4,215 nucleotides of DNA from a virus (Duplodnaviria; Heunggongvirae; Uroviricota; Caudoviricetes): IMG/VR virus record IMGVR_UViG_2534682294_000022. One strand, 5' to 3'. A model generated the notes under the pieces. The model saw only the letters and a program-made list of their open reading frames with translations. It did no database searches and was not told the DNA's origin. Of this stretch, positions 1,796 through 2,241 are shown in pieces. Each line of letters begins with the position of its first letter. Positions within the stretch are counted from its first letter, which is position 1. A program made the translations under genes and the position numbers.

Positions 1796-2154
1796 TTAAT
1801 CGTATCAAGCTGGAGCACATCCTCGAATATGCCAGGCAGCAGAGGCATATTGGTCAGCATTGTAAAATTCCACCAGGAGATATGGTTGAAATCATGGAGA
1901 TTGCCATGCGCAAGGCTGGCAACTCTCCGGTAACTCCGGATGGTTGGATAAGCTGTAGTGAGCGAATGCCGAACGATAAACAGTATGTTTGGTGTTGGGG
2001 GAAGTCTTACGGCTGGACTGAGTGCGATACCTTCGAAGGGTATTACGATTGTTCGAGAAACAAATGGTGGGCAGTTACTGACAATGGGGAAGAACCGGCA
2101 TCGAAAGTAACCCACTGGATGCCGCTACCGGAGCCGCCGCAGGAGGTGAAATGA
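1792..2154 (+). CDS. phage accessory protein, 120 aa, with Cys/Trp-rich C-terminal domain ending THWMPLPEPP (recalled as DUF551-like; unverified)
   Basis: ATG 1792 overlaps the upstream stop; SD AGGGAGA 1779-1785. Family assignment is from memory of the C-terminal motif, not from a search. Confidence 0.7.
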   Translation: MINRIKLEHILEYARQQRHIGQHCKIPPGDMVEIMEIAMRKAGNSPVTPDGWISCSERMPNDKQYVWCWGKSYGWTECDTFEGYYDCSRNKWWAVTDNGEEPASKVTHWMPLPEPPQEVK

Positions 2155-2237
2155 TGAATTGGCCTGAAGCATTCACCGCAGTTGGAGTTGCAATAGCGGT
2201 GGCATTTATTCTGTATTCGCTTTTCCGCTGGGGATAA
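2154..2237 (+). CDS. candidate 27 aa hydrophobic single-helix microprotein (MNWPEAFTAVGVAIAVAFILYSLFRWG); 28 aa if started at ATG 2151
   Basis: Not in the supplied track. Tandem ATGs at 2151 and 2154 overlap the upstream TGA (2152-2154). Strong SD AGGAGGT 2141-2147, 6 nt from ATG 2154. A 19-residue uncharged hydrophobic stretch; stop TAA 2235-2237 sits 4 nt before the next start. Confidence 0.4.
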   Translation: MNWPEAFTAVGVAIAVAFILYSLFRWG

Positions 2238-2241
2238 AGGA

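Follow-up and report, generated by a model that had tools for sequence, protein, structure and literature searches.

A candidate 27-residue membrane microprotein encoded by a widespread, mostly unannotated small ORF of Shiga toxin-type lambdoid prophages

A small ORF between the DUF551 and DUF4222 genes

The viral record IMGVR_UViG_2534682294_000022 (Caudoviricetes) contains a stretch of 4,215 nucleotides (nt), hereafter the window, in which an earlier reading of the letters alone (the original prediction) had pointed to a missed microprotein gene. The short open reading frame (ORF) in question is present in the sequence as described, with tandem ATG codons over the stop of the upstream gene: it spans 2151..2237 and encodes 28 amino acids (aa; MMNWPEAFTAVGVAIAVAFILYSLFRWG), or 27 aa from a second in-frame ATG at 2154, and it fills an 87-nt unannotated gap between genes of the DUF551 and DUF4222 families, ending 4 nt ahead of the DUF4222 ATG (2242). 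It is not wedged between two overlapping genes, as had been stated, since the DUF551 and DUF4222 genes do not overlap and only the small ORF reaches into the upstream stop. The elements of the locus are the following.

1792-2154 (+): DUF551 gene, the upstream neighbour (Pfam DUF551, 7.8e-19), annotated in all records
2141..2147 (+): Shine-Dalgarno (SD) sequence AGGAGGT, core GGAGG at 2142-2146, inside the last codons of the DUF551 gene
2151..2156 (+): tandem ATGs at 2151 and 2154, overlapping the TGA stop (2152-2154) of the DUF551 gene
2154-2237 (+): microprotein gene, 27 codons and TAA, MNWPEAFTAVGVAIAVAFILYSLFRWG; 28 aa if the start is 2151
2169..2225 (+): hydrophobic, predicted transmembrane (TM) core, codons 6-24 (AFTAVGVAIAVAFILYSLF)
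2242-2484 (+): DUF4222 gene, the downstream neighbour and, in phages of this type, the following member of the coupled series (Pfam DUF4222, 9.3e-16)

The description of the ORF as unannotated holds for RefSeq and for most of GenBank, but not for every record. The gap is empty in the RefSeq annotation (Prokaryotic Genome Annotation Pipeline, PGAP) of EDL933, Sakai and YYZ-2008, in the GenBank entries of VT1-Sakai and phi330 and in most other GenBank records; a few submissions call a 'hypothetical protein' there (ASL58468.1, FORC44_1715; ETI78407.1; AOM45384.1). Protein databases are in essence nearly devoid of the 27-aa peptide, and naming and clustering artefacts hide the family. Peptide fragments at contig ends are labelled 'DUF551 domain-containing protein, partial' by NCBI, though they are out of frame with DUF551, and a protein query with a 40-aa in-frame extension matched no more than two very small clusters, both carrying the wrong label 'DUF551 ... 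partial'. The Shigella 'DUF551' proteins of 121 aa, considered as possible fusions with the peptide, were rejected: the peptide is not in them, and the association is an artefact of clustering at 90%.

Conservation, coding potential and translation signals

Homologs of the peptide are numerous. A tblastn search returned 93-99 phage records at 48-100% identity (including 933W, VT2-Sakai, Min27, BP-4795 and ArgO145), and scans of IMG/VR gave at least 428 confirmed relatives. The copy set on which the following counts are based comprises 211 copies, corresponding to 39 distinct peptides and 70 distinct DNA sequences. The product is exactly 27 aa long in 209 of the 211 copies, the stop after codon 27 not being imposed by the search pattern. 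A frame broken between preserved flanks had been named as the outcome that would speak against the ORF; we observed the opposite, as the frame is intact in these 209 copies, even beside differing or pseudogene flanks.

The pattern of substitutions is that of a protein-coding sequence. At codons 7-24, which are free of the search pattern, column entropy amounts to 0.51, 0.27 and 0.93 at codon positions 1, 2 and 3. The pooled ratio of nonsynonymous to synonymous polymorphism (pN/pS) is 0.33 (0.40 for codons 7-24) and the median of the corresponding pairwise substitution ratio (dN/dS) is 0.21. For the two sense frames out of phase the values are 0.72 and 1.89, and both carry stops in 70/70 sequences. 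Synonymous turnover is found at conserved residues, Gly11 using all four codons, Ala15 four, Ala17 three and Tyr21 both, and, towards the C-terminal end, Cys24 both, Arg25 all four CGN and Gly27 three. Polar or charged residues or proline make up only 4 of the 46 alternative residue states of the core, versus 30% expected from single-nucleotide changes (p=6e-4), and among the 37 variants of 27 aa several small residues are nearly always kept (G11 in 36, A15 in 34, A17 in 33). Sequence, hydrophobicity and exact length of the microprotein are under purifying selection, and that hundreds of diverged loci keep the frame, the length, the SD and the stop overlap is far beyond chance. This protein-level conservation supports the notion of a missed, truly coding ORF, and we consider it very probable that the ORF is a real gene.

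The translation signals are equally well kept. The AGGAGGT at 2141, which had been ranked among the strongest SD sequences of the window, is in fact the strongest: it occurs once in the window and forms the most stable anti-SD duplex of all gene starts (-11.6 kcal/mol). The GGAGG lies 6-9 nt ahead of the microprotein ATG, within the upstream gene, and of 52 distinct junction contexts 48 carry an SD core between -15 and -5, versus a background of 8% at random positions. The start overlaps the upstream stop in 211/211 copies, as ATGA (139), ATGATGA (61) or TGATG (11); in each of six diverged loci, the homolog has 27 aa and its start lies 4 nt ahead of the end of the upstream gene. Since the homologs open with M-[TSN]-W-P and are 27 aa long, and since the SD spacing fits 2154 and not 2151, the true start is likely the ATG at 2154, and the overlap of this start with the upstream stop is a probable translational-coupling junction.

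This junction is kept throughout, although the upstream ORFs of the 211 copies belong to at least five unrelated families:

DUF551-C-terminal proteins of 120, 185 or 279 aa
a 114-aa protein with the C-terminal end ...SVEDILR
a 140-aa protein with paired CxxC-type Cys motifs (possible Zn ribbon), ending in ...NIEQEVNR (933W L0139 type)
a 209-aa protein
a 177-aa EaA-type protein

The SD and spacer of the microprotein gene (CAGGAGGTGAAnnnATGA) supply the codons for the C-termini of upstream proteins that are otherwise unrelated (...QEVNQ, ...EQEVNR, ...GVEVK, ...QEVK), as in the window, where the terminal ...QEVK of the DUF551 protein comes from this stretch (2139-2154). The mosaic recombination joint therefore lies just 5' of the SD, and the module rewrites the tail of whichever gene lies ahead of it.

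Predicted product, proposed role and alternatives

Positions 1533-4215 of the window are 100% identical to the int-proximal end of a family of Stx1 (Shiga toxin 1) prophages (VT1-Sakai/Sp15, CP-933V of EDL933, YYZ-2008 and phi330). The start at 2154 corresponds to position 2941821 of the Sakai chromosome (NC_002695.2). On the Sakai Sp15 map, the window genes share their strand with N, ssb, cIII, kil, gam, bet, exo, xis and int, and the microprotein gene sits between N...exo and xis-int. Because of this shared strand with N...exo, we assign it to the early-left (pL) operon that ends with xis-int, in agreement with the early-operon location that had been predicted; by analogy with lambda biology, and with PMC4195576, it would be transcribed from pL. 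No promoter-like or terminator-like sites were found on either strand between 1700 and 2700 by crude consensus scans, which leave room for a non-canonical RNA. The same location rules out a holin or another protein of the late lysis cassette: in Sakai the lysis genes (ECs_2968-2969) lie ~20 kb off, on the other transcription arm.

The original prediction of a single hydrophobic helix of membrane length is borne out by hydropathy and by structure modelling. The best 19-mer of the product has a Kyte-Doolittle (KD) mean of 2.28, the highest among the 74 window ORFs with 20 or more residues; over all 37 variants of 27 aa the KD 19-mer mean ranges from 1.71 to 2.76, and the approximate insertion energy is -0.9 kcal/mol. 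AlphaFold2, run without an alignment, returns one helix from W3 to R25 with a mean predicted local distance difference test (pLDDT) of 89; its 23 residues extend over ~34 Å, long enough to span the bilayer. The product is almost certainly a single membrane-spanning helix. Small residues at positions 11, 13, 15 and 17 form small-xxx-small faces, and the aromatic residues W3 and F7 on one side and Y21 and W26 on the other bracket the hydrophobic core. The N-terminal end (residues 1-7) has a net charge of -1 in 37/37 of the 27-aa variants, the C-terminal end a charge of +1 in 35/37. According to the positive-inside rule, the basic end of a membrane helix stays on the cytoplasmic side, and given the acidic N-terminal end (E/D5) and the basic C-terminal end (R25) an N-out/C-in topology is predicted. 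Peptides under 45-50 aa insert into the membrane post-translationally (PMC12648545), which would apply here because a 27-mer is released before leaving the ribosome exit tunnel.

We found no family at threshold for the peptide in Pfam, NCBIfam, PHROGs or PADLOC, where only sub-threshold noise was returned (DUF883_C, KdpF, phrog_4612, phrog_35838). The published resources that we searched, namely the ribosome-profiling (RIBOseq) tables of small ORFs (sORFs) for Sakai, a survey of small ORFs in Enterobacteriaceae, the Pro-SMP finder, an exo-xis modelling paper (PMC8614690) and the main text, without supplements, of a Ribo-seq preprint on CFT073, do not mention it, and its sequence strings were also unmatched in the literature. 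The suggestion that the gene might be new if it had no homologs has to be amended accordingly: homologs are many, but equally unannotated and uncharacterised, so that the novelty holds at the level of the family. This is a new, unnamed family within a known kind, the phage-encoded small single-pass membrane proteins.

Several better-known systems offer points of comparison. With KdpF (29 aa), MgtS (31 aa), AcrZ (49 aa) and MgrB (47 aa) the microprotein has in common a length under 50 aa, one TM helix with few flanking residues, a history of being missed by annotation, post-translational insertion (PMC12648545) and a predicted helix-helix packing with a larger membrane protein; it differs in being phage-borne and coupled inside the pL operon, whereas those are chromosomal, stress-regulated genes. 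We detected no homology to named regulatory small membrane proteins, the best match being KdpF (TIGR02115) at 14.7 bits against a cutoff of 26.85, for one variant only. Lambda Kil (47 aa), CIII (54 aa), orf60a, orf61, orf63, ea8.5 and ea22 share with it the pL operon, the N-antiterminated early-left window of expression and a small, accessory and mosaic character, but are soluble or amphipathic, in contrast to a predicted integral membrane helix. Lambda orf28 (28 aa, same operon) was rejected as an analogue, being highly acidic and unrelated. The coat protein of phage Pf3 (44 aa) inserts N-out/C-in in a YidC-dependent manner and consists of an acidic N-tail, one hydrophobic helix and a basic C-tail. 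The microprotein shares this layout, which drives N-out/C-in insertion in Pf3, yet it is much shorter, is not a virion protein and shows no sequence similarity to it.

Taken together, an early-expressed 27-aa membrane microprotein acting as a modulator is the explanation that we favour overall, with a probability of roughly 0.6. We infer its functional steps from anatomy and context. The peptide would be synthesised only when pL fires, after infection or prophage induction, by ribosomes that end on the upstream gene and re-initiate at the microprotein ATG. It would then enter the inner membrane post-translationally as the helix W3-R25, N-out/C-in, with the aromatic belts W3, F7 and Y21, W26 at the two membrane interfaces. 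The G11/A15 and A13/A17 faces, together with Cys24, may pack on a TM helix of a larger protein of the inner membrane, encoded by the host or perhaps by the phage, and this packing would alter the activity of the partner during early development. An inner-membrane single helix made early from pL by termination-reinitiation seems likely, and a modulator that acts on a larger membrane protein through helix packing is a tentative proposal for which we would not quite claim even odds. That the peptide is an early phage effector on a specific host inner-membrane target, for instance FtsH/HflKC (which sets CII/CIII levels), the divisome or a ManYZ-type DNA-entry route, is decidedly unlikely. If true, the microprotein would bias the lysis-lysogeny decision, the efficiency of induction (and hence Shiga-toxin output) or superinfection exclusion, and the cassette-like swap of diverged alleles between identical flanks would represent target- or strain-specific tuning.

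Several points weigh against this proposal. Sequence, coordinate and locus-tag searches did not find the ORF in the Sakai RIBOseq sORF tables; the cultures behind them were uninduced lysogens with pL repressed. The dN/dS values are pairwise and ignore phylogeny, and the invariance of positions 1, 3-6 and 25-26 is partly circular, because these positions were fixed by the search patterns. Moreover, Pro4 is encoded by CCT in 70/70 sequences and the final codons, TGG GGA, may at the same time serve the DUF4222 gene as an SD, so that the conservation of the two ends may in part be of DNA-level origin. The predicted N-out/C-in topology rests on the positive-inside rule with one basic residue. The context names no target, since the neighbouring genes vary, and the same composition would fit a membrane-perturbing toxin as well.

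Such a host-killing or shutoff toxin would self-associate via glycine-zipper-like faces, form pores or perturb the inner membrane, and depolarise the cell early in the lytic cycle, akin to DinQ, TisB, ShoB or other killing functions of pL operons; it would require no RNA antitoxin, because CI repression of pL silences the gene in lysogens. Type I toxins are peptides of less than 60 aa with one TM segment (PMC12648545), and the microprotein resembles them (DinQ, 27 aa; TisB, 29; ShoB, 26; Ldr, 35; Hok, ~50) in size, in being a nearly wholly hydrophobic single helix and in its residence on mobile elements. The alternating small residues at 11/13/15/17, with weak, sub-threshold matches to the glycine zipper of DUF883_C (E=0.04-0.07), the repression of the operon in lysogens, and the neighbourhood of hok/sok in 45/211 loci and of toxin-antitoxin genes in others, in a region that gathers toxic modules, point in the same direction. 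However, none of the type I toxin families (Hok/Gef, Ldr, TisB, Ibs, ShoB, DinQ, Zor) was found in Pfam or NCBIfam even at E<=10, no other toxin-family hidden Markov model (HMM) matched, PADLOC gave no hit, and Rfam had no match in the window at E<=1. In contrast to type I toxin loci, the gene has an exposed strong SD and a stop-start overlap, and our scans detected no antisense RNA, no promoter or terminator of its own and no SD-sequestering fold, the fold of 2120-2260 being no better than that of shuffles (z=+0.97). Strong translational coupling with a near-perfect SD would be unusual for a potent toxin, the helix has none of the charged or polar residues that typically line the lumen in pore formers of the TisB type, and up to seven intact copies per genome are tolerated. 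We therefore regard a toxin, which the original prediction had named together with host-takeover factors as an example, as rather unlikely.

The remaining alternatives, a role in cis, a non-coding or antisense element and a frameshift-derived anchor, are improbable even when taken together. Translation of the ORF might merely bridge the flanking genes, by termination-reinitiation coupling and protection from Rho-dependent polarity, the peptide itself being functionless. The constant overlap with the upstream stop would suit such a role, as would the DUF4222 ATG 4 nt past the stop in 91 loci, with the sole well-spaced SD-like sequence (GGGGA) in the last two codons of the ORF; but amino acids and hydrophobicity are selected while codons drift, which would be superfluous in a pure spacer, the ORF keeps a constant length of 27 codons, and conservation is equal where no gene follows closely (~153 nt in 933W-type phages; a next gene on the opposite strand in ArgO145), all of which makes a purely cis-acting function very improbable. 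It is exceedingly improbable that the site is no sense gene at all but a DNA or RNA element (a mosaic boundary, a recombination linker or a regulatory RNA) or a gene on the opposite strand. The ORF ends are indeed highly conserved DNA, alleles swap between identical flanks, and the antisense frame sharing third positions is stop-free in 70/70 DNA variants; moreover, ORFs are annotated opposite the microprotein gene in POCJ13 (RefSeq, 42 aa, PI30_gp73, - strand) and in Stx2 II (long ORF C38, - strand). Yet an open antisense frame is expected from composition, because only one Tyr codon could make an antisense stop. Neither the start nor the stop of this frame is consistent, just 25% of 132 contexts have 90% or more of the region covered by it, and in the window its first start codon comes at 2176. 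The two annotated antisense ORFs are, in view of the sense-strand evidence, probably mis-calls. As for an element, there is no signal of Rfam, terminator, promoter or fold type, and the interior substitutions are codon-periodic in the sense frame. Finally, a -1 frameshift from the upstream gene could provide some of the DUF551 protein with a C-terminal membrane anchor, as the small ORF lies in the -1 frame, which in the window is open for at least 17 codons 5' of the ATG; one protein record is an extended call of this kind. An X_XXY_YYZ heptamer is found in 0/93 contexts (last 60 nt of the upstream gene), in-frame stops lie as near as 2-8 codons 5' of the ATG in some contexts, and the upstream genes are of unrelated families with the dedicated SD and ATG kept, which renders a frameshift product scarcely conceivable.

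Small hydrophobic ORFs of phages are a recognised blind spot, and the finding of this microprotein is not revolutionary; the gene is nevertheless widespread, well-defined and unnamed. Few mobile elements have been sequenced as often, or matter as much in the clinic, as Stx1 and Stx2 prophages; even so, their RefSeq annotation lacks a conserved early-operon gene with clear translation signals, which is also missing from Pfam, NCBIfam, PHROGs and the exo-xis literature. Two studies describe the exo-xis region of Stx phages as influencing lysogenisation and induction (PMC3824215, PMC10789677). A membrane-embedded player would be a new type of component in this region, and prophage induction controls Shiga-toxin release. 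The gene model is precise and testable (start at 2154, 27 aa), and a double point mutant would remove both start codons and leave the neighbours untouched. More generally, comparative analysis alone recovers stop-overlapping micro-ORFs in phage operons.

Distribution, mosaicism and other features of the window

The taxonomic range given here is based on collections of phages, plasmids and E. coli genomes. Of 5,426 complete E. coli genomes, at least 1,555 (~29%) gave a blastn match to the window allele; a single genome has up to 7 copies, and 110 of the places lie on plasmids. In PLSDB the gene occurs on 181 plasmids (Escherichia 155, Salmonella 25, Klebsiella 1), 174 of them non-mobilizable and most, among the matches listed, of ~90-110 kb. 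The carriers are Stx1 and Stx2 phages (VT1/VT2-Sakai, 933W), other lambdoid prophages and phage-like plasmids of Escherichia, Shigella and Salmonella. The ORF is present neither in lambda nor in the K-12 lambdoid remnants Rac, DLP12, Qin and e14, and screens for small proteins in these model systems therefore never met the gene.

Alleles of the microprotein gene assort independently of their flanks. Between the window and PhiR12_1 the flanks are ~99% and 94% identical but the ORF only ~65%, and in phi467 the peptide is identical though its surroundings are only ~79% identical, which shows it to be a self-contained mosaic module. A systematic hypervariability of the ORF compared with its flanks was not upheld: in a crude, ungapped comparison, an ORF identity below 80% was seen in only 10% of the pairs whose two flanks both exceed 90%.

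The downstream neighbour varies as well. It is DUF4222, with a 4-nt gap, in 91 of the 211 loci, mok/hok in 45, with the next start ~153 nt away, a second hydrophobic small ORF in 17, and other genes elsewhere. In 933W- and VT2-Sakai-type phages the microprotein gene ends ~153 nt 5' of the mokW/hokW-sokW type I toxin-antitoxin locus, and in ArgO145 a toxin/antitoxin pair on the opposite strand comes next. The site 3' of the microprotein ORF is a hotspot for toxic or addiction modules. In the 17 IMG/VR loci mentioned above, the hydrophobic ORF (...MSDDISLAMEGALAVIAVVGVYCLVVFLMDRLGN; 49 aa, or ~34 aa from an internal ATG) overlaps or closely trails the 27-aa gene, an arrangement that points to membrane micro-ORFs in tandem in some phages.

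A second unannotated 27-aa hydrophobic ORF (MTTTECIFLAAGFIFCVLMLADMGLVQ) was noticed in the same pL operon outside the window, at 19036-19119 (+) of the Sakai locus stretch (NC_002695.2). It lies between orf63- and orf61-like genes, its ATG overlapping the stop of ECs_3004 (orf63-like) and its stop overlapping the start of ECs_3005, and tblastn matches it in 175 phage records, lambda included, all at >=90% identity; it is a candidate only as regards coding status. This second coupled ORF hints at hidden membrane peptides as a recurrent design of lambdoid early operons.

The window itself carries further genes on both sides of the microprotein locus:

1-303: DUF1627 C-terminus (Pfam)
319-714: DUF977 (Pfam)
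711-1127: weak Zn-ribbon match (Pfam, 18.2 bits, under the cutoff of 29)
2488-2622: 44-aa Cys-containing ORF (MHTAFEFWVRKTFGNRYDLTRDVDGFYCREVVKRMFDVWCHCRG), hypothetical, no Pfam family
2641-2895: DUF1233-type excisionase (Pfam)
2929-4215: tyrosine integrase (Pfam)

The 44-aa ORF has a strong SD (GGAGGT) and an ATG 4 nt past the DUF4222 stop, and extends the chain of tightly coupled small genes ahead of xis. Positions 1-1532 belong to another lambdoid lineage and have no match in VT1-Sakai, YYZ-2008 or phi330. Since this part is unmatched and 1533-4215 is identical to the Stx1 prophages, the window would derive from a recombinant prophage that shares only the int-proximal module with them. On the 5' side of the mosaic junction at ~1533 lie the DUF1627 C-terminus, DUF977, a 138-aa Zn-ribbon-like protein and a 70-aa ORF. 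Between the stop of the latter (1388) and the GTG start (1424) of a 123-aa ORF, an AGGAGG (1393-1398) runs directly into a GC hairpin of 7 bp whose loop is GAAA (1398-1415; -17.4 kcal/mol, z=-3.78), and the region 1393-1424 may be a hairpin-bridged ('split') ribosome-binding site or contain an mRNA-stabilising or processing hairpin.

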